From assembly GCA_027039485.1 (NCBI GenBank), contig JALWDZ010000026.1, positions 1,093 through 65,092 on the forward strand: a stretch of 64,000 nucleotides of DNA. The letters run 5' to 3'. Source of the stretch: Candidatus Shapirobacteria bacterium (GTDB lineage: Bacteria > Patescibacteriota > Microgenomatia > UBA12405 > UBA6130). Positions 15,598 to 64,000 of this stretch are shown here, one piece after another (within the stretch, counting starts at the first letter, position 1; each line of letters opens with the position of its first letter). The notes beneath the pieces were generated by a model that ran no database searches, was not told where the DNA came from, and saw only the letters and a program-made list of their open reading frames with translations. Made by a program: the position numbers and the translations under genes.

Positions 15598-15800
15598 AGG
15601 GGAGACAAACAAATCATAATTACCAAAATCCTAAATTCTAAACTCTAAACAATGTTCAAATGACCAAAATTCAAATGTTCAAAACATCTTTGTCATCTTT
15701 CTTTTGTTTTGGTCATTTAATCATTGGGTAATTGTTTAGGATTTGGGTCATTAGGATTTAGGATTTGTTATTCCTAGTTTCATTTTTCATTTTTCGCTTT
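15598..15800. repeat. nested-palindrome MITE/REPIN-like element, short copy without core
   Basis: Left arm caaatcataattaccaaaatcctaaa...ttcaaatgttcaaaaca is the inverted complement of right arm tgttttggtcattt...ggatttaggatttg. Same family as the copies at 19.6, 33.5, 56.9 and 58.2 kb. Confidence 0.8.
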
Positions 15801-19632: not shown

Positions 19633-20020
19633 ATCTCAAATTCCAACCCCCCCTTCGGTAGGGGCAGGCAAATCCTAATTACCAAAATCCTAAACCCTAA
19701 ACAATGTTCAAATGATCAAAATTCAAATGTTCAAAACATTTCTTTCCTGTCATCCCGCCCTTTCTTATGAAAGAGCGGGATCTAGCCGAAGGTGCATGGA
19801 ATACTATATATTGCGCTCGCTCTGCTCGCTAGATTTTTACCCCGACGTTACGTCTTGGGGCTTCGCTAACGCTCAGAATGACATAGTTTAAGTGTTTTGG
19901 TCATTTGGTCATTTGGATTTTGAGCATTATTTAGGATTTAGGTCATTAGGATTTTGGATTTGTTATTCCTAGCTCCTAGTTCTTAGTTCCTAGTTCCATT
20001 TTCTAACTCCTAGACTCTTA
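19630..20020. repeat. nested-palindrome MITE/REPIN-like element with GC-rich core (core in reverse orientation)
   Basis: Arms caaatcctaattaccaaaatcctaaaccctaaac.../...ggatttaggtcattaggattttggatttg. Core gtcatcccgcc...cggggtaaaaatctagcgag...ctcagaatgac. 3' cctag-rich tract. Confidence 0.8.
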
Positions 20021-24111: not shown

Positions 24112-24609
24112 TTAAATTTTTTTTCCCAAAATCTTGTGAAGATAAAAATGATCAGACTTTTTGCCCACCGTGCCCATAAGCGATTTTTCCTGCACCTCGA
24201 GATCAAAATTGATAGTAATTTCTGGATATGATGAGCTTAACGGTTGACAGCGAGCTTGGAAATTTTTACATTTCACCGTTTTCGGAGTGAGGGCACTACT
24301 ATTAGAAGCAACGGCCCCGTTTTGGCAGCTAAAAACAGTGATCTCCCCATCTCGCCCCCAAAATGTGATTCTGTCTCGGTTAGCGCCATCGCAAAGGTCG
24401 GGGTGGTCGGCAAAACGTTGCAAGTAATCCTCTATAGCTAAAATTGCTGTACTCCCGCTTTGCCGCAACAATTTGCTGCTCAGCGCCTTATTTTGCCCTC
24501 GCAAGCTCATTACAAAAATAGCCGCTCCTACAGTTGCTAAAATAGCAAAAGTGCTAACAACAACTAAATTCTCAATCAGAGAAAAGCCCAGATGCCTTTT
24601 CATTGCCAA
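24112..24609 (-). CDS. prepilin-type minor pilin/pseudopilin
   Basis: Class III signal with cleavage motif G|FSLIE followed by a hydrophobic helix. Confidence 0.55.
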   Translation of the reverse strand: MAMKRHLGFSLIENLVVVSTFAILATVGAAIFVMSLRGQNKALSSKLLRQSGSTAILAIEDYLQRFADHPDLCDGANRDRITFWGRDGEITVFSCQNGAVASNSSALTPKTVKCKNFQARCQPLSSSYPEITINFDLEVQEKSLMGTVGKKSDHFYLHKILGKKI

Positions 24610-25010
24610 TTACTATAAACAGTAGCCATTTCTACCATGCCTCTTTTGCTCCACCAAACTTTCACCTTGACGGTCACATCTTTTTGCGTACCGCTAATAT
24701 GACAGTTTTGATAACAGGTTTGACAGGTGAAATATTTATAGCCCTGGCAATTTGTTTCTTGTTGGCATTTATTACAAAGAGTGCTCAAATTACCCCACCA
24801 AGATTGGTCTAGTTTTGCCACCCTAATATCCTCTAGCTGCTTTTTAGCTAATTGGGTGGCTAAAGTTTTTTGTCGGTTAAACCGAGCAGTGGCAATAATA
24901 AAAGTAGTTGCCGCTGCTAATCCCGAAAGCAAAAGGGCAGAAATAGAAATTACAAAAACTACTTCCAGCAAGGATTGACCTTTTTCTTTCTGGCCTATTT
25001 TTATTGACAT
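24600..25010 (-). CDS. prepilin-type pilin-like protein
   Basis: KGQSLLEVVFVISISALLL N-terminal prepilin helix, Cys-containing C-terminus. Confidence 0.5.
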   Translation of the reverse strand: MSIKIGQKEKGQSLLEVVFVISISALLLSGLAAATTFIIATARFNRQKTLATQLAKKQLEDIRVAKLDQSWWGNLSTLCNKCQQETNCQGYKYFTCQTCYQNCHISGTQKDVTVKVKVWWSKRGMVEMATVYSNWQ

Positions 25011-25570
25011 GCCTGCTCCTCGATAGTTCCCACCTTATATAAATTCACTTGGCGGCAACGGCCCTGGTAATAAAGACGAAAATAGCTTGGGTCGGTGGTG
25101 ACAGCACTTAACCGTCCTTCTAAAGCCAAAAAACGAAGCTTTTGGTTGTCGTCGCCATCACGATAAAGCCAATTACTCAAAGACTGCCATTCTTTTTCGC
25201 TAATAGTTTGCCAGGGCTGCTGGTAGTTATCGCAAACTTGGCGGTATTTCAAACTTTTATTAACGCTCCAAATTTCATAATAAGCCAATTCGTTGCATTG
25301 GCGGCTTTTTACACCGGCTCGCGCTTGACTGCGAAGCATGGCCAGATCTGTCGCCAAAACCTGAGCAGCCATATCCACCTGTTTTTTGGCCAAATAAAAG
25401 CGATAACCAGCAAAACTAAAACCTATTAGAAGACTAGCAATAGCTAAAGATACTAAAAGCTCTAAAAGGGTAAGGCCTTTCATTCTACGGCGGCGAAAGA
25501 TGATAATTGCAAATTGTGTGCCAATTATTACCACACCGAGGATTACGAGGACAACCATTGCGATTCCCAC
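25001..25570 (-). CDS. prepilin-type pilin-like protein
   Basis: MKGLTLLELLVSLAIASLLIG prepilin N-terminus. Confidence 0.55.
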   Translation of the reverse strand: MGIAMVVLVILGVVIIGTQFAIIIFRRRRMKGLTLLELLVSLAIASLLIGFSFAGYRFYLAKKQVDMAAQVLATDLAMLRSQARAGVKSRQCNELAYYEIWSVNKSLKYRQVCDNYQQPWQTISEKEWQSLSNWLYRDGDDNQKLRFLALEGRLSAVTTDPSYFRLYYQGRCRQVNLYKVGTIEEQACQ

Positions 25571-25946
25571 TAGATTCTAACGCAGCGCAAAGTACATAAT
25601 CAGCACCATTAGCAGAATAATAATAATAGTGTTGCCCCCCCTTAGGATCCTGAGGGAATTCGTGCATATAGGTAACACCATTACAAGTCCAAGCTCCTGA
25701 TGCAGGGGGTAAGCAGGCTCGACAAGTACCTCCATCGTTATAAGGATAACAGCCAATATCGCTGCGAATCATTTCCAAAACTGACCGGATTTGCTCTAAA
25801 TCCGCTTTTCTCTTATCATCCCGAGCCTTCCGGCCAGCCGATTGATAAGACACCAAGGCCACCGAAGACAGAAGAATAATAATCGTGGTTACTACCAATA
25901 ACTCGATAAAAGTAAAGCCTTTCTTCATTGAAGATTGCTCAAACAA
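25485..25946 (-). CDS. type IV pilin (tandem paralog 1)
   Basis: KKGFTFIELLVVTTIIILL, then RKARDDKRKADLEQIRSVLEMIRSD and a Cys-rich C-terminal domain. Confidence 0.7.
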   Translation of the reverse strand: MFEQSSMKKGFTFIELLVVTTIIILLSSVALVSYQSAGRKARDDKRKADLEQIRSVLEMIRSDIGCYPYNDGGTCRACLPPASGAWTCNGVTYMHEFPQDPKGGQHYYYYSANGADYVLCAALESSGNRNGCPRNPRCGNNWHTICNYHLSPP

Positions 25947-26329
25947 AAATACTTTCCTCTGCCATAATTACAACCATTATTAGTGCCAGTACTTCGGGCA
26001 TTACCATTACTGGCCTCTAGTTGCGCACAAATACAATAAGAGTCGCTTGTACACTTCCAAGAATAATTTCGGGAAGGTTTAGGATCCCTAGGCAAACCAC
26101 CAGGCAAATAAGTATTTCCCGGATTACAACCAACCGGATATCGGTCATGTACCGCCCGGTATTGCTCTAAGGCTTTTTGGACCGCTTTAATATCCTGGCG
26201 GCGGCGGGCATCTCGGGCCCGTTTTTGGGCTGCCGAGTAAGAAGTAGAAATAACAGCCATTAAAACAGCGATAATAGAGATAACTACCAACAATTCAAAG
26301 AGAGTAAAACCGGCATTCTTTTTCATCAT
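25925..26329 (-). CDS. type IV pilin (tandem paralog 2)
   Basis: NAGFTLFELLVVISIIAVLMAV, then KRARDARRRQDIKAVQKALEQYRAVHDRYP. Confidence 0.7.
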   Translation of the reverse strand: MMKKNAGFTLFELLVVISIIAVLMAVISTSYSAAQKRARDARRRQDIKAVQKALEQYRAVHDRYPVGCNPGNTYLPGGLPRDPKPSRNYSWKCTSDSYCICAQLEASNGNARSTGTNNGCNYGRGKYFCLSNLQ

Positions 26330-26811
26330 TGACTACATACATAATAACAGTTTTCGGAACAGTTTGCTTGGCAAATCGTTTCCGGACAACGCTGGCTTGA
26401 ATCGCTAATATCTACATCACCGCCATTTTCTAATTCAGCCCAGAGGCGAAAGCCATCGCCATCATTACTCACACAATAGCCGTAATGGTGGTTGCCTCCA
26501 AGAGGGTCATCAGGCACTTTGGTCATGTAGGTAGTATTGCCTTCTTGCCACTGGCTGCCAAAAAGTAGTGGGGGAGTGGGATAAGCCTGATGGTCGTTGT
26601 AATAAAGGCGAAGGCTATTTTTAATTTCCCAAAGATCTTGCTTCCGCTGGCTATCCCGGGCCCGCTGCCGAGCCGACATTAAATTAGGCAAAAGTATCCC
26701 GGCTAAAATAGCAATAATCGAGAGGACCACTAAAAGCTCAATGAGGGTAAACCCTTTTCGTCTCAGAAGGGTAAACCCTTTTTGCTTCGGAAGGGTAAAT
26801 CCTTTTTTCAT
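26326..26811 (-). CDS. type IV pilin (tandem paralog 3)
   Basis: KGFTLIELLVVLSIIAILAG, then RQRARDSQRKQDLWEIKNSLRLYYNDHQAYP. Confidence 0.7.
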   Translation of the reverse strand: MKKGFTLPKQKGFTLLRRKGFTLIELLVVLSIIAILAGILLPNLMSARQRARDSQRKQDLWEIKNSLRLYYNDHQAYPTPPLLFGSQWQEGNTTYMTKVPDDPLGGNHHYGYCVSNDGDGFRLWAELENGGDVDISDSSQRCPETICQANCSENCYYVCSQ

Positions 26812-27362
26812 GGAAGGCGAACGTTAGAACTAGTAACGCCAAAATTATATGTCTCACCGGCGCATTGGTAGCCATTATTATTATACTTATTATAATCAGG
26901 GTCATGGCTATTTTCCAAAACAGAAAAAAGTTTAAAATAGGTTCCGTCCGATTGGTAGCAATAGTGAAAACTACGCCGCGGATCCTGCGGTAACCGCTTC
27001 ATATAAACAACAGTGGCGTTATTAATATTTTCCTCGAAAGCATCTCCCCAATCTAGAACTGTATTTTGGGGACAATGGCGGTTAACAACAATTTTACCTG
27101 TCTCTTGGCCAGAACAATCAGTGCTTAAGGGGTAAGAGCGGTGATCGTTATAATACATTTCTAAGGCTCGGGCAATATTACTTAAGTCTGCCTTCCGTTG
27201 GGCATCGCGTGCTTTCTGCTGGCTAGTATGGTACTGACCAAAGCCAATGCTTGCCAAAATACCCAAAATAGCCATCACCACCAACAGTTCTATTAAAGTA
27301 AACCCTCTCCTCATTTTTTTATTGACCACAAGTGGCATCATAACAACAAGCGGTGCCCTCAC
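26808..27362 (-). CDS. type IV pilin (tandem paralog 4)
   Basis: RRGFTLIELLVVMAILGILASIG, then QKARDAQRKADLSNIARALEMYYNDHRSYP. Confidence 0.7.
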   Translation of the reverse strand: MRAPLVVMMPLVVNKKMRRGFTLIELLVVMAILGILASIGFGQYHTSQQKARDAQRKADLSNIARALEMYYNDHRSYPLSTDCSGQETGKIVVNRHCPQNTVLDWGDAFEENINNATVVYMKRLPQDPRRSFHYCYQSDGTYFKLFSVLENSHDPDYNKYNNNGYQCAGETYNFGVTSSNVRLP

Positions 27363-28026
27363 TATTACATCTATACTCTACACCAGGACAACAAGTCGAG
27401 CAAGTATCTGGCAAGCAGTAATGGTTATTTTCTCCCCCGCAAGTTGGCAAATAACATCCTGAGGGGAGGGTTGGGACAGGCGTGGGGGTAAGCATTTTTG
27501 TCGGTACAGGCGTGTTTGTTGGTTTATTGTTGACTTGCCCTGGGGGAGTAATATTGGGACTTGCTAAACCATAGGTATACTCTTGACCGTCTACTTGGCA
27601 ACCATCAGCGCAATATTCTTTTGGCCTAGGATAAGCCAAATTGGCATAAATAGCGAACCAGGTAGGACAATCGTTATCCTCAACGACAATTTTATAAGGT
27701 TGATGGCTTTGGGGATCACAGGGAACGATGTCTAACCAGGGGCGAAAATCATGGCTGTCGCAATGTTGCAACTTAACTAAATCCTCGCCATGAGGATAAC
27801 AACCATTGTCATTATAATAATCCTCCATGGCTCGTTGTAATTCGTGCAAATCGCGGCGCCGGCGGCCGTCATCAGCTTTACGAATTTGGGCTAAATAATT
27901 CATCAAAAAGATAATGGCCAAAATAACAATAATGGCCATTGCTATTAAAATTTCTACCAGAGTTACTCCTTGTTGGTTGCCTTTTGCTACCATGGCAGCA
28001 ATTTTAAAATATAATCGCCCCACCAC
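27319..28026 (-). CDS. type IV pilin-like protein with Thr/Pro linker and Cys-rich C-terminal module
   Basis: GVTLVEILIAMAIIVIL, then RKADDGRRRRDLHELQRAMEDYYNDNGCYP. Next a TPVPTKMLTPTPVPTLP linker, and an about 45 aa tail with 11 Cys. Confidence 0.6.
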   Translation of the reverse strand: MVGRLYFKIAAMVAKGNQQGVTLVEILIAMAIIVILAIIFLMNYLAQIRKADDGRRRRDLHELQRAMEDYYNDNGCYPHGEDLVKLQHCDSHDFRPWLDIVPCDPQSHQPYKIVVEDNDCPTWFAIYANLAYPRPKEYCADGCQVDGQEYTYGLASPNITPPGQVNNKPTNTPVPTKMLTPTPVPTLPSGCYLPTCGGENNHYCLPDTCSTCCPGVEYRCNSEGTACCYDATCGQ

Positions 28027-28742
28027 CAGCTAATTAGAGCGGCGGCAACTAGAAACGGCCCAAAAGCAACTGCCGTTTTCCAATGGGCTCGGCGTCGCCA
28101 GAGAAGGAACCCGGCCCACAGCCCTCCGGCCAAAAAAGCTAGATAAAACAAAAATAGGAGGCGCTGCCAACCCAACCAAAGGCCAAGGACAAAAACTAAC
28201 TTAGCATCACCCAACCCCATTCCTTTTCGACCAGTAATCAGATAAAGGAAAAGAAAGAAGAAAAGCCCGCCAAAAGCAGCTAAAAAGTCCAACCGGGGGA
28301 GGAAAAGCACCAAAACCAGCAGGGAAAGGAGAAAAACATCGGGAATAATTTGGTAATGAGCGTCAAAAAAGAAAATGGCTAAGAGAAACCAAACCAAAAG
28401 CAAATACATTCCCAGCCACGGCCAGGCTAAATTTTGCTGCCGCCACCAAACAAAAGTAGCCAAAAACAATAGACCGCCTAAAAGTTCTAGAATAAACCAC
28501 TCGGGATTTACTTTAGCCCCGCAGGTCCGGCACCGGCCGCGCAACAAAAGGAAAGATAAAAGAGGGATATTTTCCCACCAAGCTAACTGGCGATTACAAT
28601 TGTCGCAGTGGGAACGGCCCCACAAATCCAACCCTCCCTTTTGGGGATAACGACTAATTAAAACACCCAAAAAGCTCCCCCCGCTCGCCCCAAGAGCAAA
28701 CAGGAGGAGCTCCCAAAATATCATCTTTACTGGGGCACACAT
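27987..28742 (-). CDS. pilD: prepilin peptidase (A24 family)
   Basis: N-terminal Zn-binding CDNC...CRTCGA, catalytic GMGLGDAKL motif, about 7 TM. Confidence 0.8.
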   Translation of the reverse strand: MCAPVKMIFWELLLFALGASGGSFLGVLISRYPQKGGLDLWGRSHCDNCNRQLAWWENIPLLSFLLLRGRCRTCGAKVNPEWFILELLGGLLFLATFVWWRQQNLAWPWLGMYLLLVWFLLAIFFFDAHYQIIPDVFLLSLLVLVLFLPRLDFLAAFGGLFFFLFLYLITGRKGMGLGDAKLVFVLGLWLGWQRLLFLFYLAFLAGGLWAGFLLWRRRAHWKTAVAFGPFLVAAALISWWWGDYILKLLPW

Positions 28743-29383
28743 TTAAACAATGAATTTGTTCTGTCTGTCCAAGTAGCACTATCTATTTGGCTCTGACTGG
28801 TAACTGCGGTAATCTGGGTTGGCACCCCATCGGCGGTAGTGATGCCCAAATCCTTAAGCTTTGAACTTAGTTTTCTGTTTGCCTTTGCTTTAGGAATAAA
28901 GCAAACATAAACGGCTCCGCCATTGCCTGCTTCTTTAAAAAGATAGAGTCTATTCAAATCACTCCTGATATTATCGGCAAAAGGATCCTTTTGGGCAAAA
29001 GAGGCCTTTAATTCATCCGTCTTTATCAACTCTCCATAATTGCCATTAGCATCCTTGCAGCTGGAAACTTCAGCATTATAAGAACTGCCCGCACAAACAC
29101 CAAAGCCCGGCATTTTGCTCGTTAAACCCAAAACCTGGGACTCGTCAGCTCCATTGCCTTCGCCCCAAACTTCATCATCCCACGGATAATATTCTTGGGA
29201 AGCATAGTACCGCTCCAAGGCGCTCAAAACTTCGGCGGCATCATTTTGAAATTTCGCATCCCGAGCCTTATTGGTTTGTTCTACTGGATTTAAAGTAGAA
29301 AGAACCGCCACCGACAAAATAGCAATTAAGGAAATAACAATCAATAACTCAACTAGAGTAAAACCTTGTTTCAGTTGTTTCAT
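28727..29383 (-). CDS. pilA: type IV pilin, candidate major pilin (immediately downstream of pilC)
   Basis: KQGFTLVELLIVISLIAILSVAVL, then NKARDAKFQNDAAEVLSALERYYAS, 218 aa. Confidence 0.65.
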   Translation of the reverse strand: MKQLKQGFTLVELLIVISLIAILSVAVLSTLNPVEQTNKARDAKFQNDAAEVLSALERYYASQEYYPWDDEVWGEGNGADESQVLGLTSKMPGFGVCAGSSYNAEVSSCKDANGNYGELIKTDELKASFAQKDPFADNIRSDLNRLYLFKEAGNGGAVYVCFIPKAKANRKLSSKLKDLGITTADGVPTQITAVTSQSQIDSATWTDRTNSLFKCVPQ

Positions 29384-29399
29384 CTTTTCACCCCCTTTC

Positions 29400-30602
29400 C
29401 TAAAATTGGCTGGTTAAGTTATAAATTGGCATAATCACGGCAAAAACTAAAAAGCCAACTCCAATACCTAACACTATCATGATAAGTGGCTCAATAGCAC
29501 TTGTCAAGGTTTTAACCCGTTGATCAGCTTCTATTTCAAAAAAATGAGCCAGGCGGAAAAGAATGGTATCCAATTTGCCTGTCTGTTCGCCGGTGGCAAC
29601 CATTTCTACCAGAATATCGGGGAAAATCATTTGTTCCCGCAACGACTCAGAAAGAGGAAAGCCCTTCTCGATCCGTTGGTCGACCCGTTCAAGAGCTTTC
29701 TGGTAAACCATATTACCGGCGGCTCGACTAATAGTTGCCACCCCATCTACCAAAGGCACCCCGGTATTAACCATCATCCCTAAAGTCCGGGTAAGATTGG
29801 TAAGAAGAGTGGCTTGCAAGAGAGGGCCTAAAATGGGTATCCGCAATTTTATTTCATCATACCGATAGCGCATCTCTGGTTGGCGCATTAAAACCTTCCC
29901 GGCCACCACTCCCGCCACTGCCAAGAAAGGTAAAAGCCAAACCAAAACGCCGCTTAAGCTGGCAATATCCATCAAGACGCGCGTTTCCCAAGGCAGTTGG
30001 GTATTAAATTCATTGTAAAGATTGGCCATCTTAGGAATGACAAAAGTTACCACAATAAAAATAACCCCTCCCATACCCACCAAAATAATCGCTGGATAAA
30101 TCATTGCCCCTTTTACCTTAGCCAAAAATTCTTGCCGTTTTTCCAAAGTATCCGCCAATTGCGTGAGCACCTTTTCTAAAACCCCAGCTTCCTCGCCGGC
30201 ACTGACTGAAGCAATGTAAATATCGCCAAATACCTCGCGATGCTTTTTTAGGGCCGCCGTAAAAGAGGAACCACCCTCGATATCGCGGAGAAGATCGCCA
30301 ATAACCAACTGCAACTTGCCGCTTTCCTGTTTTTCCAGTAAGGACAACGCTTCAGTCAATGGCAACCCGGCCTCAATCATCGTTGCCAGTCGGCGAGTAA
30401 AGGAGGCTACCTGCCCTCCCGAGACCCGGCTAAAGTGAAGGCGCAGCTTTTGCCAAAACGAAAGCTGATAAGGTTTAATGTCAACTAAAACCAAGCGGCG
30501 CTTTTTTACCAAAGAAATTGCTTCCCGCAAGTTGCGCGCCTCTACCAAGCCTTTATTGACTTTGCCTTGCCAATCTCGGGCTCGAAAAACGTATTTTTTC
30601 AT
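29400..30602 (-). CDS. pilC: type IV pilus inner-membrane platform protein PilC (GspF family)
   Basis: Two GspF repeats, 3 TM blocks, 400 aa. Confidence 0.85.
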   Translation of the reverse strand: MKKYVFRARDWQGKVNKGLVEARNLREAISLVKKRRLVLVDIKPYQLSFWQKLRLHFSRVSGGQVASFTRRLATMIEAGLPLTEALSLLEKQESGKLQLVIGDLLRDIEGGSSFTAALKKHREVFGDIYIASVSAGEEAGVLEKVLTQLADTLEKRQEFLAKVKGAMIYPAIILVGMGGVIFIVVTFVIPKMANLYNEFNTQLPWETRVLMDIASLSGVLVWLLPFLAVAGVVAGKVLMRQPEMRYRYDEIKLRIPILGPLLQATLLTNLTRTLGMMVNTGVPLVDGVATISRAAGNMVYQKALERVDQRIEKGFPLSESLREQMIFPDILVEMVATGEQTGKLDTILFRLAHFFEIEADQRVKTLTSAIEPLIMIVLGIGVGFLVFAVIMPIYNLTSQF

Positions 30603-31694: not shown

Positions 31695-33479
31695 CTAATA
31701 TTTAGCCACCCGGAGAACTTCCTCCACGGTGGTAATACCCTCTAACGCCTTCAAATAGCCATCCTGCATCATCGTTACCATGCCCTCCTTTACAGCCGCT
31801 TTTTTAATTTCCTCGGCCGGCGCTTGTTTAAGGATAAGCTGCATAATTGCATTAGTCACCGGCAAAGTCTCAAAAATCCCAATTCGACCGTAATAGCCGG
31901 TAAAGTTGCACCCCTGGCAGCCTTTGCCGCGGTAAAGCTTTGGTTGGTCACCGGCTTTGGGGGGCCAAAGCGGGCCAAGCACTTTTTTCATTCCTTCAAC
32001 CACTTTTTCTGGCGGCTGGTAACTTTCCTTACAGTCATTATGGATCCGGCGGACAATCCGTTGGGCAACCACTGCGTTCAAAGCAGAAACTAGCAAAAAG
32101 GGCTCAACCCCCATATCAATTAACCGTGGCGCAGCTCCGGCAGCATCGTTAGTATGTAGTGTCGAAAAAACCAAGTGGCCAGTAAGGGCTGCCTCAACCG
32201 CCAGTTCAGCCGTCTCTTTATCGCGAATCTCGCCAACCATAATAATATCCGGATCCTGGCGCAAAAACGAACGCAGGGCCGACGCAAAAGTAAGCCCCGC
32301 CTGGGGATTTACCTGGACCTGGTTAACCCCTTTGATGTGGTATTCAACCGGATCTTCGATAGTCATCACGTTAACTTTGGTAGTGTTAATCTTAGAAAGA
32401 ACTGAATAAAGAGTAGTCGTTTTCCCGGCTCCAGTTGGACCGCAGACCACAATCATTCCGTGGGGGCGGCTAATGGCCTCTTGCAAATCGCGGAGTGTTT
32501 TCCCCCGCAAACCTAATTCTGGCAAGTCGGGAATTTTTTGCGTTTTCTTCAAAAGCCGCATAACTACCTTTTCGCCATAGACAGTCGGTGCTGTCGAAAC
32601 CCGGACGTCGATTTCCTGCCCATCACTGCGAAAAGTAAAGCGCCCATCCTGGGGCACCCGCTTTTCATCGATTTTCATATCGGCCAAAATTTTAATTCGG
32701 GAAACAACGGCATCATGGATCCGCCGCGGCAAAATAAGTTTCTCTTGCAAAATGCCGTCAATGCGGTAACGGACCCGGGTATCGCCCTCTTGGGGTTCAA
32801 TATGAATATCCGAAGCCCGGGCCTTGACCGCAAATTGCAAAATTGTCGAAACAACCTTGGCAATTGGCGCCTCGTGGATAATATTCTCCAGATGGTTAAC
32901 ATCCAAGACATTCTTTTGATAAGTTTTAGCCGTTTCCCCTAGGGCCTTAGTCACCTCGGCGGTAATTTCCTGGTTATAATGTTCGTCGATTGTCTCCTGG
33001 ATAAGCTTTTTATCAGCCAGGTAAGGCTCTATTTTTAAGCCTGTTTTCTTTTCCAAAAACTCCACCGTCTCCAAATCTAAAGGATTGGCCATAGCCACCG
33101 CCAGCTTTTTCTCTTTAGGGTCATAACGAAAGGGCACCACCAGATAATACTCGGCCACGCTTCGGGGAATAAAAGTAATGCTTTGGGGATCGAAAGCAAT
33201 TTCTTCTAAATCAGCATAGGGAACGCCCAAAAACTTCGCCTTAGCAGCTAGCAATTTCTTGGTGGGGATTAGATTTTCTTCATGAATAATATCTTCCACA
33301 TTCTTGCCGGTTTGAATTGCCTTTAGTTGAATATTTTTTACCTGGGCTGGCGAGAGCAGCTTCTCCTGGGCCAGAACGTCCAAAAGCGAGTGGGGCAGTT
33401 TTGTTTCTTCCATCACTTCCATTATAAACAAAATAAATCCCAAATCACAAGCACCCTGCCCCGACGGACGTCGGGGCAA
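31695..33479 (-). CDS. pilB: type IV pilus assembly ATPase PilB (GspE family)
   Basis: N-terminal GSPII domain, Walker A GPTGAGKTTT, tetracysteine CQGC..., 594 aa. Confidence 0.9.
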   Translation of the reverse strand: MPRRPSGQGACDLGFILFIMEVMEETKLPHSLLDVLAQEKLLSPAQVKNIQLKAIQTGKNVEDIIHEENLIPTKKLLAAKAKFLGVPYADLEEIAFDPQSITFIPRSVAEYYLVVPFRYDPKEKKLAVAMANPLDLETVEFLEKKTGLKIEPYLADKKLIQETIDEHYNQEITAEVTKALGETAKTYQKNVLDVNHLENIIHEAPIAKVVSTILQFAVKARASDIHIEPQEGDTRVRYRIDGILQEKLILPRRIHDAVVSRIKILADMKIDEKRVPQDGRFTFRSDGQEIDVRVSTAPTVYGEKVVMRLLKKTQKIPDLPELGLRGKTLRDLQEAISRPHGMIVVCGPTGAGKTTTLYSVLSKINTTKVNVMTIEDPVEYHIKGVNQVQVNPQAGLTFASALRSFLRQDPDIIMVGEIRDKETAELAVEAALTGHLVFSTLHTNDAAGAAPRLIDMGVEPFLLVSALNAVVAQRIVRRIHNDCKESYQPPEKVVEGMKKVLGPLWPPKAGDQPKLYRGKGCQGCNFTGYYGRIGIFETLPVTNAIMQLILKQAPAEEIKKAAVKEGMVTMMQDGYLKALEGITTVEEVLRVAKY

Positions 33480-33930
33480 ATTCTAATTACCAAAATCCTA
33501 ATCCGCCAGCTGGCGGACTAAACAAATTCAAATGACCAAAATTCAAATGCTCAAAAACATTGAAACTGTGTCATTCTGAGCGTTAGCGAAGCCCCAGGAC
33601 GTTCCGCCAGCTGGCAGAGTCGGGGTAAAAATCTAGCGAAGCGCATTAATCCCACACCTGACTAACTCTCATGCGCTCGCTCCGCTCGCTAGATCTTTAC
33701 CCCTACCGAAGGTGGATTTATTCCACCGAAGGGGGGCTTCGTCGCTTCGCTCCTCAGGATGACAAGGGGAGATGTCTTTTGTTTTGGTCATTTGATCATT
33801 AGGTAATTTGGTTATTGTTTAGGATTTGGGTCATTAGGATTTAGGATTTTGCTCAACCTAGTTCCTAGCTCCATTTGAACTTTTCACTTTCCCCTTCTTT
33901 CTCACTTTTCACTTTTCACTTAAACTTTTC
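33478..33930. repeat. nested-palindrome MITE/REPIN-like element, longest copy, core present as an inverted duplication
   Basis: Arms aaattctaattaccaaaatcctaatc.../...ggatttgggtcattaggatttaggatttt. Internal 230-nt imperfect hairpin built from two inverted copies of gtcatYctgag...gaagcccc...ggggtaaaRatctagcga. 3' cctag/cactttt tract. Confidence 0.8.
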
Positions 33931-49411: not shown

Positions 49412-50538
49412 ATCGTGGGTAATTCTAACAAATTCTTAGCTAACCACCAAAACGTTGCCGGCCATAATTTCAGCGGCGTAGTTTTCAAAAGATAACTAAA
49501 ATTGCGCCCCCGCTCTAAGAGGATCGGCCACCAATAACGGCGCCAGGTTCGAGAAGGATAGTTCTTGATTAGCAGCCACCACCAATTGCGCACCGTCATC
49601 CGCTGGCGCAAATTTCCCATCTTCCGGCTCGTGGCTCCACCCTGGTGATAAGCTACCAACTGGGGCAAAAAAAGCATCTGCCAGCCCCTTTCCCGCAACC
49701 GCAGAGCCAGATCGACATCTTCTAAATAAGCAAAAAAGCGTTCATCAAAACCGCCAGCAGCCAAAAAAGCGTCCCGGCGATAAACTACCGCCGCCCCATT
49801 AAGGCCATCCGCCAAATGCGGTTTTTTTAGCCAGGCTTTAAATTTTTTTCGTGCCTCCGACCATTTCCAACCATTGGCAATATTTTCCGCCCGACCCGGC
49901 AAAAAATACCGTAACCCTAAACTTTCAACCCGGCGGCCAGTTCGATCTAGCACTATTCCGCCAAAGGCGGCCACCCGCTGTTGCCGGTATTGCCATAGGA
50001 TTAGCTCTAAATTCGCCAGCCAATTATCAGCCAGGCGCACATCATCATTCAAGACCAAAAGATAATCGCCCCGGGCCGCCTTTGCCCCCTGATTCACCGC
50101 TCTCGCAAAACCAAGGTTTGTTTTATTAAAAATAGTTTTGATTACTATGCCAGGGGGTATGGAGAAGACGCTATCATCATGTTGGTTGTTCTCACCTTCA
50201 TTGTTGTTCCATGATTTTCTTCTCTCTTTTTTGTTTGGAATTTGAGGTTTGTAATTTTGATATTGTTTGTAATTTGCCTGCCTGCGCAGGCAGGGTGCTT
50301 GGTGCTTGGAATTTAATTCCTTGAGGAATTCTTTACTGCCATCATGAGAATTGTTATCAATGATGATTATTTCTAGGTTTTGTATTTGGTCATTTAAATT
50401 TTGATATTGTTTGTAATTTGCCTGCCTGCGCAGGCAGGGGATTTGGGATTTGGAATTTACAGCCCTAAAAAGGCTGTTGAGGCATTCTTGGAGAAGGTCT
50501 CGTCCCTGGAAATGGGGAATAATAACCGAAAGTTTCAT
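49369..50538 (-). CDS. glycosyltransferase family 2 carrying two in-frame repeat-derived insertions
   Basis: GT2 N-terminus (LSVIIPHF...CLNSL) and core (EIIIIDNNSHDGS, NLGFARAVNQG, ED motif). Two low-complexity inserts encode SKSQIPCLRRQANYKQYQN... Confidence 0.7.
   Translation of the reverse strand: MKLSVIIPHFQGRDLLQECLNSLFRAVNSKSQIPCLRRQANYKQYQNLNDQIQNLEIIIIDNNSHDGSKEFLKELNSKHQAPCLRRQANYKQYQNYKPQIPNKKERRKSWNNNEGENNQHDDSVFSIPPGIVIKTIFNKTNLGFARAVNQGAKAARGDYLLVLNDDVRLADNWLANLELILWQYRQQRVAAFGGIVLDRTGRRVESLGLRYFLPGRAENIANGWKWSEARKKFKAWLKKPHLADGLNGAAVVYRRDAFLAAGGFDERFFAYLEDVDLALRLRERGWQMLFLPQLVAYHQGGATSRKMGNLRQRMTVRNWWWLLIKNYPSRTWRRYWWPILLERGRNFSYLLKTTPLKLWPATFWWLAKNLLELPTIWRTRKPLSWLAKK
50140..50460. 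repeat. repeat-element-derived segment inside the GT2 gene (two copies of the palindrome CCTGCCTGCGCAGGCAGG plus ggatttgg k-mers)
   Basis: tttgatattgtttgtaatttgcctgcctgcgcaggcagg occurs twice (about 50268 and 50414). Near-identical to 53624..53900. Confidence 0.75.
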
Positions 50539-52949: not shown

Positions 52950-53987
52950 TTGGGCAAAAGCATTGCCCAAAAAAGTAAAACTTAAAACAAGACGATAAAG
53001 CCAAAGCGGGTAATGGTGCTTTCGTAAAAATAGGAAAAGCGAGGCAAAATAGCGCCGGTAAAATTGCCACCGCTCTTTCATTTTCCAATTTTTCCAACTC
53101 CCACCGCCAAAGTGAATTATTTCCGCCGCTGGCACCACCACCAACTTACCCAATCCTAATTTTTTAACTCGGTACGACCAGTCAACATCTTCAAAAAAGA
53201 AAAAATAATCCTCGTCAAGGCCTTTTGTTTTTTGCCAAACTGTCCGCCGAGCCAGCAAAGCTGCCCCCGGCAATTGTTCAACTGGCGTTGGCATTTTGCT
53301 CACCTGGCTAAAGACCAGCCACTTTAGCGGCGTGGCTGTCACCAGCCAGCGGCCGGCCAGGCTATGGTAAAACGCCATTTGCCAAAGGTTAGGAAAACGC
53401 ATATAGTAGCGCTGCTGAAAACTGCCGTCGGGGTTTAATAACCTAGGAGACACGGCGGCCACATCGCCATGTTTTTCTAAATAGCCCACCATCTTCTCTA
53501 AGGCTCCCTTCTTAACAATAGTATCTGAATTAAGAAGAAGGATATATTTGCCTCTGGCAATTCTTATTCCTTGGTTGTTAGCCTTTGCAAAACCAAGGTT
53601 TGTTTTATTAAAGATAGTTTTAATGGCTATGCCCTGGGGTATAGAAAAAATACCACTGTGTCGGTTATTTTCACTTTCACTGTCATTCTGAGATTTTCTT
53701 CTTTTCTTTTTGTTTAGAATTTGAGATTTGGGATTTGGAATTTGGGATTTGGAATTTAATTCCTTGAGGAATTCTTTACTGCCATCATGAGAATTATTAT
53801 CAATGATGATTATTTCCATGTTTTGAATTTGGTCATTTAAATTTTGATATTGTTTGTAATTTCCCTGCCTGCGCAGGCAGGGAATTTGGGATTTGGAATT
53901 TACAGCCTCAAAAAGGCTGTTGAGGCATTGTTGGAGGAGATCCTTAGTGTTGTAATTGACAATGATAATGGAGAGGAGAGGACTCAT
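52881..53987 (-). CDS. glycosyltransferase family 2 carrying in-frame repeat-derived insertions (paralog of 49369..50538)
   Basis: LSIIIVNYNTKDLLQQCLNSL, EIIIIDNNSHDGS, NLGFAKANNQG, DEDYFFFFEDVDW. Inserts encode SKSQIPCLRRQGNYKQYQN... and SQIPNPKSQILNKKKRRKS... Confidence 0.7.
   Translation of the reverse strand: MSPLLSIIIVNYNTKDLLQQCLNSLFEAVNSKSQIPCLRRQGNYKQYQNLNDQIQNMEIIIIDNNSHDGSKEFLKELNSKSQIPNPKSQILNKKKRRKSQNDSESENNRHSGIFSIPQGIAIKTIFNKTNLGFAKANNQGIRIARGKYILLLNSDTIVKKGALEKMVGYLEKHGDVAAVSPRLLNPDGSFQQRYYMRFPNLWQMAFYHSLAGRWLVTATPLKWLVFSQVSKMPTPVEQLPGAALLARRTVWQKTKGLDEDYFFFFEDVDWSYRVKKLGLGKLVVVPAAEIIHFGGGSWKNWKMKERWQFYRRYFASLFLFLRKHHYPLWLYRLVLSFTFLGNAFAQLLRERLTRAKVQWRLWRWLWDF
53624..53900. 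repeat. repeat-element-derived segment inside the GT2 gene (palindrome CCTGCCTGCGCAGGCAGG, tandem gggatttggaattt)
   Basis: Near-identical at nucleotide level to the 50140..50460 segment (e.g. gaatttaattccttgaggaattctttactgccatcatgagaatt). Confidence 0.75.
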
Positions 53988-56889: not shown

Positions 56890-57250
56890 ACCTACCTGTG
56901 CAGGCAGGCAATACTAAAATCCTAAATTCAAAATCCTAAACTATAAACAAATTCAAATGACCAAAATCCAAATGTTCTAAACATTTCTTTTTCTTTGCCT
57001 TTTTCTTTTGTTTTGGTCATTTGGTTATTTAATCATTTGGTAATTGTTTAGGATTTGGGTCATTAGGATTTAGGATTTGTTTGTGATTTGGTGTTTGGGA
57101 TTTGGAATTTGGTGCTTTTTTGACCTAGTTCCTCCAACCTAGCTCTTAGTTCCACTTTAACTTCTTTTCCACTTTACACTTGAATTTTTCACTTCCTTAG
57201 CCCTTCGCCCTTAGCTCTTAGCCCCTTCTTACCTAGTTCCTAGTTCCAAT
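56890..57250. repeat. nested-palindrome MITE/REPIN-like element (no GC core; degenerate CCTG...CAGG palindrome at left end)
   Basis: Arms ...aaaatcctaaattcaaaatcctaaactataaac.../...ggatttgggtcattaggatttaggatttg. Contains gtgtttgggatttggaatttgg, the same k-mers as the GT inserts. Long cctagttcctag tract. Confidence 0.8.
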
Positions 57251-58246: not shown

Positions 58247-58665
58247 ACAAATCCTAAATCCTAATGACCCAAATCCTAAACCTGCCTGCGCAGGCAGGTA
58301 AATCTAAAATTCAAATGACCAAATGACCGAAACCTTGTCACCCTGAACGAAGCTGAAGGCGGAGTGAAGCCCCAGCACGTTCCGCCAGCCGGCGGAGTCG
58401 GGGTAAAGATCTAGCCGAAGGCGCATGGAAAAGGATATTAGGGTATCAGGTTAATTTTCTTTTTTCTTTTTCTTTCTTTCTCTGTTCTTCTGATCTCTGA
58501 TTCTCTTTCCCTGATTACCTAATTCTTCCTGATATTCTACATTATTTAATCCCCTTTTCTTTACTGAGTTCTAAGTTCTGAATATCTAAATGTTTAGAAC
58601 ATTTGGATTTTGGTCATTTGATATTGTTTAGAATTTAGGATTTAGGATTTTGAATTTATCTTCTT
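58245..58665. repeat. nested-palindrome MITE/REPIN-like element with perfect palindrome and GC-rich core
   Basis: caaatcctaaatcctaatgacccaaatcctaaacctgcctgcgcaggcaggtaaatc... Core gtcaccctgaacgaagctgaaggcggagtgaagcccc...cggggtaaagatctagccgaaggcgcatgg. Right arm ...ggattttggtcatttgatattgtttagaatttaggatttaggatttt. Confidence 0.8.
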
Positions 58666-60623: not shown

Positions 60624-61989
60624 GGGCCTGTTTTTCCAACATTTGCCAAAAGCGCTGCCTTTCTTGAGGGGTTGCCTTCTGGGAATCATAATAGGTAAAC
60701 CAAACCCGATTGCTCGCCTTCTTTCTGCCAGCGCCATCTTTCACTTGGACCCAAATCCAGCCGGTTTTCGAAAGTAAGGGGTCAATTTCTACTACAATCA
60801 GCTTATCGCTCCACGCTTTTATTCTCTGGGGCCGGCCAGCTAAGAAAACCTCCGAGGTAAAAGGCAAATTGCGAAAATTGCGCCCATAGATTTTCACCGC
60901 CATATAACGGCTGGCAATATCGGGATCTATCCGTAGAATGTAGGGTTGGAATTCAAATTTAGCCCGCGCATAACGAAAAATCCTCTGGTTGCCCCGCCAA
61001 AACAACAAAAGCAAGCCAACCAAAATTATTTTCCGCCATCGCCAAGTCGCTCTTTTTTTTAGCCAGAAAATTATTGCCAGAAAAATTAAAATGAGCCAGA
61101 ATCCTAGCAAATAAGGCAAAAGCCGGCCACCGAATTCCAGCCAAAATTTATTTTCAAAAAACCGCCGGTAAAATTGGATTTCCCGACTTATGCCCAATAT
61201 TCCTAAAATCCCCAATATTCCCCCGGTAATTTCCCAAAAATATTTAGCCGCCACTAATGCTAAAGTCAAGATTACCTTTCCTATTGCTGCCATGCCCCGC
61301 CACCACCAACTCCTTCGTTCCCTCATTGTTACCAAATCTCGCGCCCACTGTTCCCGTTTCACTATCAACACCACCACCGCCTTTTGCGTTAGCAGACTAA
61401 TGCCCACTAGCATATACCTCACCAGCCCCTTTATCACCCACCCCGTCAGCGTTATCAGCCTTCTATCCGCGCCATCCGCATGTATACTATCCGCGTCATC
61501 CGCGTTCTCCGCTCCCATCAGCATTATCCGCGCTCTTATACCATCCGCGCTATCTGCGAGTTTTTTAATAAACTCGTCAAAATCCCGCCAACCTCCTTCT
61601 ATATCGCCCACAGGGCGTATATCGTCCCGCTTGCGGGGCATATTTCTATTTGTATCGCTCGCGCCAGCGAGCATGTTTCTATGTATTTCTATTAATTGTT
61701 GGATAACGCCAACCACCAGAAACATATAAGTCCAGATAGCCGCTTTTTCAGCAATTGCTTCTTGTTTGGCCATTAACAAAAAGGGGCACATCATCAAGAA
61801 AATAAGGGCCCCAAAAATAGAAAACCGCCCCTCCAGCCGCCAGCCGATCACCGCCCCAATCCAAATCGCCGTCAATCCCATAATCACCACATCCGATGTA
61901 AACCGGAAAACAAAAATATCCATCAAAATGCCGACAATTGCCGCGATTAAAAAGAAATTACGGTGATGAATAAAATATTTTTTAATCAT
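60598..61989 (-). CDS. hypothetical polytopic membrane protein with C-terminal Ig/IPT-like domain, interrupted by REP-derived in-frame segments
   Basis: N-terminal TM helices, central region encoded by atccgcg-rich and GC-hairpin repeats (...NMLAGASDTNRNMPRKRDDIRPVGD...), C-terminal beta-rich domain. Confidence 0.4.
   Translation of the reverse strand: MIKKYFIHHRNFFLIAAIVGILMDIFVFRFTSDVVIMGLTAIWIGAVIGWRLEGRFSIFGALIFLMMCPFLLMAKQEAIAEKAAIWTYMFLVVGVIQQLIEIHRNMLAGASDTNRNMPRKRDDIRPVGDIEGGWRDFDEFIKKLADSADGIRARIMLMGAENADDADSIHADGADRRLITLTGWVIKGLVRYMLVGISLLTQKAVVVLIVKREQWARDLVTMRERRSWWWRGMAAIGKVILTLALVAAKYFWEITGGILGILGILGISREIQFYRRFFENKFWLEFGGRLLPYLLGFWLILIFLAIIFWLKKRATWRWRKIILVGLLLLFWRGNQRIFRYARAKFEFQPYILRIDPDIASRYMAVKIYGRNFRNLPFTSEVFLAGRPQRIKAWSDKLIVVEIDPLLSKTGWIWVQVKDGAGRKKASNRVWFTYYDSQKATPQERQRFWQMLEKQALKEARNKY
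61430..61700. repeat. REP-like GC-rich hairpin cluster (tandem tatccgcg motifs plus gtcccgcttgcggggc and cgctcgcgccagcgagc hairpins)
   Basis: Hairpins with 7-bp GC stems in AT-rich background, matching units in 62985..63880. Confidence 0.7.
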
Positions 61990-62594
61990 TCCTTATAATA
62001 CGCATCTTCTGCCCAATTACGAGGATTATTAACAATATATTGGCGAATGTTTTCCAATGATTTCTGATTTCTAATAATTCGTTCGTAATAATTGCGTTGC
62101 CAAATTTTGCCGGCAAACGGCGGCCAATTATGTTGTTTTACATTGCGGATATATTCGTTGGTGGTCATCCGTTTAAACCATGAAATATACCGCCCCAACC
62201 CTTCATATGTATTCGGGATATTTCGTTTCGTCTGTAGGGGCGATTCCGTGTAATCGCCCTGTTGATCCGGCGATTCCGTTAACGGGCGAAAACATGGTTT
62301 CGCCAAATCATCCGGGCGAAAACATGGTTTCGCCCCTACAATTTGAATAATGCCGTGGATGTGGTTGGGCATAATAATAAATTCATCCAATTGTATCCGA
62401 CGATATTTCGCCGGTAATTTTTGCCACCAACGGTACACCATTCTGCCAATTTTGTTCATTACCATTTCGCCATTTTCTATTCGACCAAATAAATTCACCC
62501 GATTATGCACACAAATGGTAATAAAATAATATCCGGGTTGGCGATAATCGTAATTTGGCAACCTAATTGTCCTCCTATGAAAAATTTTTGCCAT
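61986..62594 (-). mobile_element. REP-associated tyrosine transposase (RAYT; IS200-like Y1 transposase) with an in-frame palindromic insertion
   Basis: HuH motif IMPNHIHGII, C-terminal WQRNYYERIIRNQ...YIVNNP block typical of 'transposase IS200-like' (PF01797) REP-associated enzymes. Duplicated 24-nt palindrome gggcgaaaacatggtttcgcc at 62270..62340 encodes AKPCFRPDDLAKPCFRP. Confidence 0.75.
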
Positions 62595-62602
62595 CTAATT
62601 CG

Positions 62603-64000
62603 TTAATGTATTAATTTTTTAAGAATTAATGTGTATCCTAGATATCCTACTGATCCCATTAAGGTCATCAGACTTATAAACAACCCAATGTAGAAAAACC
62701 GCTGGGGCCAGAATTCGACAATCAATTCATAATTTTCCCGCCCGCCAACATCGCTGGGTTTGATATACCAACTATTGGCATAGCCATTCACCAAATAATG
62801 CCGGTCTTCGGCAATTGGTTGTTTGCCCCAGGTTTCAAAAGTGGCCGGTTCCAAAAAGGTCATCCGGTGCGTGCCTTCTTTTATCTCGCCATTAAAATAA
62901 CTAGCCACCTCCGGCCCGTATCCCTTATTCTTCAAAAACCACCCCGTCACCCTCGCCGCCACTTTCCCCACAATTCCCATTAAATTATTTCTATTTGTAT
63001 CGCTCGCGCTAGCGAGCATGTTTCTATTTGTTTCGCCCCGTAAGGGCATATTTCGCGCCGAAGGCGCATATAACTTCCACCCTTTATGAAAACTTTCTGA
63101 AAACACCAGCGTATACGGCCCCTTCGCCCCGGTTACTTTTACCCGATATTTTGTCGGATTGATTTTGACAAACTCTATTTTAGGAAACCCTTTTTCAGTT
63201 TCATGAGCCGAAGACAGATTTATATCGTCCGAAGGGCTTGTATCGTCCCGCTTGCGGGACATATTTCTATTTGTATCGCGAGCGTCAGCGAGCTTATTTC
63301 TATCTATATCTTGTTTGTAATTTAGAATCTGTTTATTAATTTTCGAATTCGTTAATAAATTAATTGACTTTAATATAATCTCCGGTACTATAACCCGCCT
63401 CACTTCCAATTTCGCCAACGCCCCCACCTCAACCCCTTTTAATACCAATCGCCCTTCATCGGCAAAATTGCCAGCTTTAAAATAAGCAACAAAACTATTT
63501 CCGTTTGTATCGCCCGCAGGGCGTATTTCGCGAGCTCCGCTGTGGCGGGGCGAGCTTGTTTCGCGAGCGCCAGCGAGCATGTTTCCATCTATTTCTTTAA
63601 TTATTTTCCATTCCTCACCTTCTTTCCTTTCCTCTATTAAAATCTCCCCCGCCGGCTTTACCCCCTTCTTTAGCCGCCCTTCCACCCGATACCACTCTCT
63701 TCCCCTATATTCACCTATCCTTAGGGCAAAATTATTTTCTTCCTTTTTATCGCGAGCGTTAGCGAGCGTGTTTCTGTCTGTATCGCCCGCAGGGCTTGTA
63801 TCGTCCCGCTTGCGGGGCATGTTTCTATTTGTATCGCTCGCGTTAGCGAGCATATTTCCATTTATATCTATCAAATTTTTACTTAATCCCCTTATCGGTA
63901 AAACTATTTCCTGTTTTCCCGCCTTAAAATACCTCTCCCCCCACTCTTGCCACCCACTTATATCGCCCGAAGGGCTTGTATCGTCCCGCTTGCGGGACAT
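62603..64000 (-). CDS. hypothetical tail-anchored protein heavily invaded by in-frame REP-like units (5' partial; ORF continues past the window end)
   Basis: C-terminal TM (FFYIGLFISLMTLMGSVGYLGY). Peptide NMLA.ASDTNRNMPRKRDDTSPAGD recurs at least 5 times, each encoded by the same ~85-nt triple-hairpin DNA unit. Confidence 0.35.
   Translation of the reverse strand: MSRKRDDTSPSGDISGWQEWGERYFKAGKQEIVLPIRGLSKNLIDINGNMLANASDTNRNMPRKRDDTSPAGDTDRNTLANARDKKEENNFALRIGEYRGREWYRVEGRLKKGVKPAGEILIEERKEGEEWKIIKEIDGNMLAGARETSSPRHSGAREIRPAGDTNGNSFVAYFKAGNFADEGRLVLKGVEVGALAKLEVRRVIVPEIILKSINLLTNSKINKQILNYKQDIDRNKLADARDTNRNMSRKRDDTSPSDDINLSSAHETEKGFPKIEFVKINPTKYRVKVTGAKGPYTLVFSESFHKGWKLYAPSARNMPLRGETNRNMLASASDTNRNNLMGIVGKVAARVTGWFLKNKGYGPEVASYFNGEIKEGTHRMTFLEPATFETWGKQPIAEDRHYLVNGYANSWYIKPSDVGGRENYELIVEFWPQRFFYIGLFISLMTLMGSVGYLGYTLILKKLIH
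62985..63880. repeat. array of dispersed ~85-nt REP-like triple-hairpin units (copies near 62990, 63230, 63490, 63750, 63960)
   Basis: The unit is catgtttctatttgtatcgctcgcgNtagcgagcat, then gtcccgcttgcgggacat, then gcccgaagggc; each block has a 4-7 bp GC stem. Confidence 0.75.

Follow-up and report, generated by a model that had tools for sequence, protein, structure and literature searches.

Can a transposase gene that carries palindromic repeats within its own reading frame still encode a working enzyme, and what are such repeats doing there? This question is raised by a gene for a REP-associated tyrosine transposase (RAYT, or TnpA_REP, where REP stands for repetitive extragenic palindromic sequence) located in a 64,000-nt stretch of DNA, hereafter the window, which comprises positions 1,093 to 65,092 of contig JALWDZ010000026.1 (assembly GCA_027039485.1, Candidatus Shapirobacteria bacterium). 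A previous reading of the window from its letters alone, referred to here as the sequence-only reading, regarded a repeated palindrome inside this gene as a REP-like element that had invaded its presumed mobiliser, possibly leaving a domesticated or dead transposase, or else an enzyme that tolerates the insert as a loop. The comparisons presented here show, in the linker between beta3 and alphaC of a subclass 2.4 RAYT with intact catalytic residues, a REP cluster of the form GTAG...CTAC that is in frame, and GTAG-footed hairpins are found at the same site in nearly all homologues of the gene.

The encoded protein is very probably a tyrosine (HuH/Y1) transposase of TnpA_REP subclass 2.4, carrying its own REP type in frame. 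This subclass, equated with RAYT Group 4 of Bertels et al. 2017 (PMC5581495), exhibits the signature NH[IFV]H / WQ / YIxNNP (see Table 1 of the source for the HuH motif) and a median length of 194 aa, and in-frame REPs inside tnpA_REP genes constitute its hallmark (Quentin, Siguier, Chandler, Fichant 2018, BMC Genomics 19:475, PMC6006769). The window protein shares NHIH, WQ and YIVNNP with this subclass, together with the repeat insertion between beta3 and alphaC, the GT[AG]G foot and the double-foot form. N77, H78 and H80 are invariant in the alignment of the family (A1), as are Y186, the presumed catalytic tyrosine, I187 and N190, while W165-Q166, in the context IWQRNYY, is invariant across the family. 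Sequence searches recovered 3215 homologues, and the sole relative in the PDB was 4ER8, the TnpA_REP of E. coli. By alignment to this structure, W165, Q166, E171, R172 and R175 coincide with positions reported as contacts of the GTAG guide (W94/Q95/E100/H101/R104 in the E. coli enzyme, with their roles given in PMC6006769). The Pfam model PF01797 (Y1_Tnp) matches with 24.4 bits against a cutoff of 23 and covers only the C-terminal half of the protein. An AlphaFold2 model built on 38 homologues predicts a confident Y1 core, with a beta-strand at residues 78-85 carrying the HuH motif and a helix at residues 133-155. Foldseek searches with this model retrieved the TnpA proteins of IS608, ISDra2 and IS200 as well as 4ER8, the latter being the structural match with the lowest root-mean-square deviation among the top results; the predicted fold and the PDB matches thus agree with membership of the Y1 HuH transposases. 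The distance from HuH to Tyr is 106 residues because of the REP-encoded loop, whereas medians of 58-67 are given for most subclasses (PMC6006769). The window contains one RAYT. A weak tblastn match at 539-955 was considered as a second one and rejected, as it lies inside a 391-aa open reading frame (ORF; 65-1240) judged from its sequence to encode a tRNA-guanine transglycosylase.

The sequence-only reading had described a 24-nt perfect palindrome present twice in tandem between the HuH motif and the C-terminal block. The position, the encoded peptide AKPCFRPDDLAKPCFRP and the two exact copies were confirmed, since the window contains exactly two copies of the 22-mer CGGGCGAAAACATGGTTTCGCC, at 62283-62304 and 62313-62334 (0 expected from shuffles), spaced with a period of 30 nt and located inside ORF 61986-62594. 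The perfect palindrome was not, given that the quoted string is 21 nt long and the unit is an imperfect palindrome formed by a 7-8 bp stem (GGGCGAAA/TTTCGCCC) and the 6-nt loop ACATGG. Moreover, the locus includes parts that go beyond that description, namely a third full hairpin (62238-62259), a half unit (62269-62279) and an entire 106-nt GTAG...CTAC block (62234-62339, residues 86-121) that leaves the reading frame open. The content of this block is three full hairpins and one half unit, which is the remnant of a fourth REP, complete in locus L002 (protein P0003). The third hairpin belongs to REP unit 4 (Table 1), which lies in the opposite orientation, reads GDYTESPLQ on the coding strand and terminates in CTAC. 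Units 1 and 4 both possess a GTAG foot and a stem of 7 bp or longer whose base is GC-rich, the features by which REPs are recognized in the Methods of PMC6006769 (GT[AG]G 0-2 nt 5' of a hairpin, stem >=7 bp, GC-rich base). The outer arms of the block (62233-62273 and 62300-62340) are 78% complementary, and folding of the block as single-stranded DNA yields a single long hairpin (-32.3 kcal/mol, z = -6.3), with an equal or better value in 0/200 shuffles. Two inverted REPs are therefore able to form one long hairpin, and the 106-nt block is equivalent to an inverted REP cluster or REPIN. In the AlphaFold2 model, the stretch that leads from the HuH strand to the following helix (residues 88-129) is coil with a predicted local distance difference test score (pLDDT) below 50, and linker lengths vary widely among homologues. 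The 36 block-encoded residues are thus predicted to form a disordered surface loop, which fits the second outcome considered by the sequence-only reading, a tolerated insert. A variable beta3-alphaC insertion made of short DNA repeats, modelled as a peripheral extension, has been described for subclass 2.4, as has an insertion of 8 residues at the alphaB end (PMC6006769).

Evidence on how this block is maintained comes from the family as a whole. After the HuH strand, VGAx(PC/LC/LR/PR)x(R/C)P is present in most of the 120 best homologues, and before the next helix (alphaC) most have either GExxxSPL(Q/R/H/P) or GQPHRVAPT, the length between both peptide motifs being highly variable. In nucleotide terms, the VGAx motif comprises GTAG, an 8-bp stem, its loop and the complementary arm, in this order. 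Of the family genes for which DNA was recovered, 71/84 have one or more perfect GT[AG]G-footed hairpins (>=7 bp) in the linker, and the linkers of these 84 genes contain 124 such hairpins with 54 distinct stems, versus 0.2 expected from shuffled linkers. The variable residues of the VGAx motif co-vary in pairs (K-F, I-N, N-I, T-S, D-V, A-G, H-V/M and G-T) encoded by reverse-complement codons and, therefore, the constraint acts on DNA. Likewise, the K-F and I-N hairpins, when read as reverse complements, yield GENxVSPLQ and GDYTESPLQ, terminating in CTAC, and the 3' foot CCCCTAC persists in two reading frames, as SPLQ and as APT. Among 36 sequences in the 8-6-8 register (8-bp arms and a 6-nt loop), 98.6% of cells pair, almost all of them as Watson-Crick pairs (wobble n=4), and double-sided changes affect 5/8 stem pairs in 57 cells; the covariation score was reached by 0/500 shuffles, and slid controls pair at 33-49% only. 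These compensatory stem changes, together with feet that persist in different frames, show that the hairpins are maintained at the DNA level. A separate observation concerns the length of the blocks from the first GT[AG]G to the last C[TC]AC in loci L001-L183, which is a multiple of 3 in 1/58, leaves a remainder of 1 in 29 and a remainder of 2 in 28. These lengths avoid multiples of 3 because the 3' foot has two preferred frames, SPLQ and APT, and the pattern of remainders may reflect phylogenetic inertia.

The closest relatives reveal how the block has changed. The two-copy tandem arrangement is common to the window and L001 (P0002, protein 83% identical), while the other hairpin type is duplicated instead in L002 (protein 62% identical). 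The blocks of the three genes are each 106 nt long. Aligned as reverse complements, the window block is identical to that of L001 at 98/106 positions and to that of L002 at 95/107, versus 77/107 and 75/106, respectively, in direct orientation. Moreover, the opposite (+) strand of the window block reads VGAIPCNRP...GENMVSPLQ, which is the coding-strand peptide of P0002 and P0003. The comparison thus shows that the whole block has been inverted in place, with the frame preserved, relative to the closest homologues. By neighbour-joining analysis of the core protein, the inverted state falls in the window lineage and again in P0004, i.e., in 2/28 close lineages, the P0004 inversion being less well supported by DNA (59/70 vs 54/72). 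Inversion of the block looks rare on the evolutionary scale. Three assemblies of the organism were compared, namely the window, L003 from another sample and L179, identical to the window; no orientation polymorphism was found among them and nothing in them indicates rapid switching of orientation. As the two further assemblies contain an identical block, it is not an assembly artefact. Between the window and L001, the ratio of nonsynonymous to synonymous substitution rates (dN/dS) in the core is 0.127, with dS of 0.30, and the 8 differences between both blocks all fall in loops or spacers, no full stem being affected. The RAYT gene is under purifying selection.

Outside the organism, the same hairpin is a dispersed repeat. 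In a scan of GTDB species genomes, the 23-nt sequence GGGGCGAWWCCRTGTWWTCGCCC was found in 116 copies in 94 stretches (loci L004-L097; for example, L074 7730-7752, L024 4428-4450 and L091 7673-7695) from many phyla, the host metagenome-assembled genomes (MAGs) including members of Patescibacteria, Omnitrophota, Planctomycetota, Deltaproteobacteria, Aminicenantes, FCPU426, Gammaproteobacteria and one Pacearchaeota archaeon. Approximately 105 copies are preceded by GTA, which completes the GTAG foot, and 84 copies lie outside RAYT genes, mostly in intergenic regions or at gene ends. Many copies are present in several MAGs, and the copy number reaches at least 17 in the FCPU426 MAG CSMAG_1987 and 6 in a Paceibacterota MAG. 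Since the sequence is dispersed in multiple copies in other MAGs, the in-gene hairpins belong to a genuine dispersed REP family, and the proposal that a REP-like element resides in the RAYT gene is borne out by its GTAG foot, its GC-rich stem, its inverted partner and its mostly extragenic occurrence in other genomes. A few copies of GGGGCGAWWCCRTGTWWTCGCCC were also seen deep inside long non-RAYT ORFs (553, 575 and 2666 aa), apparently in frame.

How, then, should an array of REPs inside their presumed mobiliser be interpreted? A recent REP invasion that inactivated the gene and left a dead or decaying transposase, as contemplated by the sequence-only reading, is extremely improbable. Such a fate would account for an insert that adds 36 residues between two catalytic motifs and for the curated RAYT and Pfam models matching weakly or in two pieces. 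However, nearly all homologues bear this type of insert at an identical site, and a relative with 83% identity possesses the tandem copy as well, both of which contradict a recent event. Besides, the frame is open, none of HuH, WQ, the Y motif or the GTAG-contact residues has been lost, and the insert is predicted as a loop that lies outside the confident core. With its catalytic residues intact and a core dN/dS of 0.13, the gene looks alive. The encoded residues are ancestral within the subfamily and an insertion relative to other RAYTs, e.g., E. coli TnpA_REP, so that the refutation proposed in that reading, ancestral residues in place of an insertion, applies by half. It is equally hard to believe that VGAxPCxRP...GExxxSPLQ is a motif selected for the function of the protein, with the palindromes as incidental by-products, although the family retains this peptide pattern throughout, and in frame in every case. 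The variable residues co-vary exactly as reverse-complement codons, for which there is no rationale at the protein level, the DNA of the 3' foot persists in two distinct frames, and the block can be inverted in close relatives to yield an unrelated peptide; moreover, the same DNA is intergenic in many genomes and the region it encodes is predicted to be disordered.

The inversion itself could point to a programmed switch that flips frequently in populations, through RAYT activity or recombination between feet, and toggles loop isoforms or expression states. The inverted state of the window relative to its two closest relatives and the second, less well supported inversion in the P0004 lineage speak in its favour, as does the fact that 41/58 double-footed blocks remain stop-free if inverted in place, versus 32/116 other antisense frames. 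Nevertheless, a switch of this kind is quite unlikely, considering that all three assemblies display one orientation, that an inverted state in 2/28 close lineages suggests rare flips on the evolutionary scale, and that no invertase gene is adjacent. The enrichment in stop-free inverted frames is real, but openness in both directions largely follows from the quasi-palindromic design and, hence, it was not used as a sign of selection for invertibility. A possibility that deserves more weight, albeit still a doubtful one, is that the in-gene REPs are a functional cis element, acting either as an autoregulatory site that the RAYT would bind on its own gene or mRNA, or as a resident 'seed' through which enzyme and substrate would stay together in vertical and horizontal transfer. 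The stems are kept by compensatory change family-wide and are invariant between close relatives despite a dS of 0.30, identical 23-nt hairpins accompany RAYT genes in very distant phyla, and the only GTAG REPs of the window are those inside the RAYT gene. However, repeated conversion or re-insertion from extragenic copies would explain the conservation equally well, and some family members have one hairpin or none in the register searched. Several points also weigh against the interpretation favoured here, that of a subclass 2.4 RAYT whose own REPs are maintained in frame as DNA. The curated model NF047646 (REP_Tyr_transpos) reaches 57.4 bits against a cutoff of 80, with a match that the insert splits into two stretches. 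Outside the gene, the 64-kb window contains no copy of the unit at <=3 mismatches, no GTAGGGGCG and no GC-rich hairpin with a GTAG foot. In addition, the set used for covariation was pre-selected for the 8-6-8 register, and around half of the family uses other loop lengths. Finally, conservation of the hairpins may result from selection in place or from repeated overwriting by extragenic REP copies, as both are compatible with the data.

Comparison with known systems places the locus within an established framework. REPs of the 'double-foot' type, GT[AG]G...C[TC]AC, have been described, and those tabulated for subclass 2.4, e.g., GTAGGGGCGAAAAATTTTTCGCCCCTAC, share with the window hairpin the design GTAGGGGCG...CGCCC(CTAC) (PMC6006769); three G-C pairs at the stem base are common to both. 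Subclass 2.4 genes usually have REPs within 1 kb (PMC6006769), whereas no GT[AG]G REPs flank the window gene within ~1 kb, a departure from the usual REPtron layout. Besides, that work stresses Cyanobacteria, Bacteroidetes and 'various phyla', while the host of the window is probably a Patescibacteria MAG. The E. coli enzyme (RayT/YafM, PDB 4ER8, subclass 2.2; Messing et al. 2012, PMC3479197) has the HuH/Y1 fold in common with the window protein, recognizes a GTAG guide 5' of a GC-rich hairpin as found in the window, and its W/Q/E/R contact positions are conserved by alignment; however, its post-HuH linker is short and its REPs are extragenic and flank the gene. The block resembles REPINs in its two inverted REPs of ~100 nt overall, its single long imperfect hairpin and its association with a single-copy RAYT, although REPINs are extragenic and number tens to hundreds of copies, whereas the block is located within the RAYT gene, translated and present once in 64 kb. 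In-frame insertions in unrelated genes are known for Rickettsia palindromic elements and intragenic GTAG/CGTC REPs (Di Nocera et al. 2013, PMC3733652). Like the window block, the in-frame palindromes of that study are short, often dimers encoding 20-30 residues, and tolerated; they differ in that they reside at variable sites in assorted host genes, and not at a site fixed subfamily-wide in the presumed mobiliser. The TnpA proteins of the IS200/IS605 family (IS608, ISDra2) exhibit the same fold and likewise rely on a hairpin together with a 4-nt guide, but they belong to multicopy insertion sequences with subterminal hairpins outside the gene, unlike the single-copy window RAYT, which lies between host genes with an overlapping stop/start. 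The core observation, in-frame REPs in subclass 2.4 tnpA_REP genes, is already published, and the gain lies in detail and in a new host lineage. Neither the inversion of the block nor codon-level covariation, both seen here, is mentioned in the main text or supplement legends of PMC6006769, and nothing on REPs inside RAYT genes was found in later literature beyond PMC6006769 and PMC3733652. The in-frame inversion of the block, the codon-level covariation and the lack of nearby extragenic copies are thus apparently new, though modest, additions.

Table 1. Coordinates of the RAYT gene, its in-frame REP block and other repeats of the window.
Feature	Position	Strand	Basis
RAYT / TnpA_REP gene, 202 aa, subclass 2.4 (Bertels Group 4)	61986..62594	-	ORF listing, profiles, homologues, PDB relative, AlphaFold2 model
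HuH motif, codons CAC ATC CAC (H78-I79-H80) within MPNHIHGII	62355..62363	-	sequence, alignment A1
WQ motif (W165, Q166) within IWQRNYYERIIRN	62097..62102	-	alignment to 4ER8; by alignment, GTAG-guide contact segment in E. coli TnpA_REP
Y motif YIVNNP, residues 186-191	62022..62039	-	alignment A1; aligned to DYIYINP of 4ER8
Double-foot REP block GTAG...CTAC, 106 nt, in frame, residues 86-121, VGAKPCFRPDDLAKPCFRPLTESPDQQGDYTESPLQ (36 residues)	62234..62339	-	sequence, folding, block comparison
REP unit 1, GTAG + GGGCGAAA CCATGT TTTCGCCC on the coding strand; VGAKPCFRP, 'K-F' type	62314..62339	-	
REP unit 2, exact tandem copy of unit 1 without GTAG foot; 7-bp stem; AKPCFRP	62284..62304	-	
Half unit GGCGATTCCGT, left arm + loop of an 'I-N' type hairpin	62269..62279	-	block comparison
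REP unit 4, opposite orientation, GTAG + GGGCGATT CCGTGT AATCGCCC, 'I-N' type; hairpin 62238-62259	62234..62259	+	
Arrays of the second hairpin family	61598-61700, 62986-63060, 63219-63321, 63496-63606, 63736-63879, 63958-64000	+	
AT-rich repeat sites	~15600-15770, 19600-19960, 33450-33850, 50210-50500, 53690-53950, 56890-57110, 58250-58660		

The RAYT gene is embedded among its neighbours like a member of an operon. It starts 8 nt after the upstream stop (62595-62602), and its own stop and the start codon of the downstream gene share the sequence ATGA (61986-61989), a gene and an overlap that recur in L001 (L001 715-718). In L002, the RAYT gene is located between ORFs with weak matches to phage-integrase SAM-like domains. 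Both genes that flank the window RAYT contain in-frame arrays of a second family of small hairpins, characterized by the conserved spacer ATRTTTCTATTTGTATC and devoid of a GTAG foot. Their stems are variable, GC-rich and 5-6 bp long (GCTCGC..GCGAGC, GTCCCG..CGGGAC, CGCCC..GGGCG and GCGCC..GGCGC), and the arrays encode peptides such as DTNRNMLAGASDTNRNMPRKRDD. The spacer matches at 8 sites, all on the + strand and within 61640-63869, versus 0.1 expected, and all copies of this family lie in one orientation within ~1.5 kb of the RAYT gene. Relative to homologues of both neighbouring proteins, the arrays are insertions. No member of the family was found in the 176 other loci fetched; given this absence, the foot RTATC, the 5-6 bp stems and the conserved 18-nt spacer, the notion that these flanking hairpins represent the same REP family was rejected. 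The presence of a second hairpin family in frame in both neighbouring genes is apparently new as well.

The window contains other repeats as well. Short-period repeats rich in AT (GGATTTA / GGTCATT and similar) occur together with GC hairpins, CCTGCCTGCGCAGGCAGG and TGCCCCGACGGACGTCGGGGCA among them, at >=7 sites (Table 1), and a 201-nt segment is duplicated with 93% identity (50299-50499 and 53742-53942). The cluster of pilin-like genes at 24112-30602, otherwise ordinary, is responsible for repeat family D6 of the window, because these genes share an N-terminal segment of the GFTLIELLVV type. Two ORFs adjoining this cluster look, from their sequence, like a prepilin-peptidase-like membrane protein and a PilC-like protein.

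Returning to the RAYT gene, the following explanation is proposed for a subclass 2.4 enzyme with its own REPs in frame. By analogy with E. coli TnpA_REP, the substrates that the enzyme would bind and cut are single-stranded hairpins of the in-gene type with a GTAG foot, and the REP-encoded loop, as modelled, would leave the catalytic core working. The comparison with relatives shows a history in which one hairpin was duplicated in tandem with a 30-nt period, a state common to the nearest relative, and the whole block was later inverted. Both changes probably reflect the ordinary dynamics of palindromic repeats, the candidate processes being slippage or template switching, recombination between inverted feet, and RAYT cleavage and rejoining. 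A bolder scenario, for which the odds are rather poor, is that of a RAYT system that has become wholly intragenic in a compact, probably Patescibacteria, genome, a 'REPtron' without extragenic space. In this scenario, the REPIN of the gene would be a maintained and occasionally flipping resident copy of the substrate that links enzyme and REP in vertical and horizontal transfer and might serve in autoregulation, while the enzyme or the repeat dynamics would have seeded the second, GTAG-less hairpin family, whose sole survivors would be the in-frame arrays of the two neighbouring genes.

For the RAYT family, the locus illustrates a coding sequence in which a conserved 'motif' is set by the secondary structure of DNA rather than by the function of the protein, and a segment that can flip as a whole without breaking the gene. 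Thus, the loop 'motifs' of these RAYTs are not to be taken as protein features. Genes of this subclass score under the cutoffs of curated RAYT models, so that annotation pipelines can miss them. Moreover, the occurrence of the same 23-nt REP with RAYT genes in very distant phyla bears on the spread of RAYT-REP pairs. If a wholly intragenic RAYT system were indeed to operate in this organism, REP activity would be a route by which new disordered loops are written into proteins.

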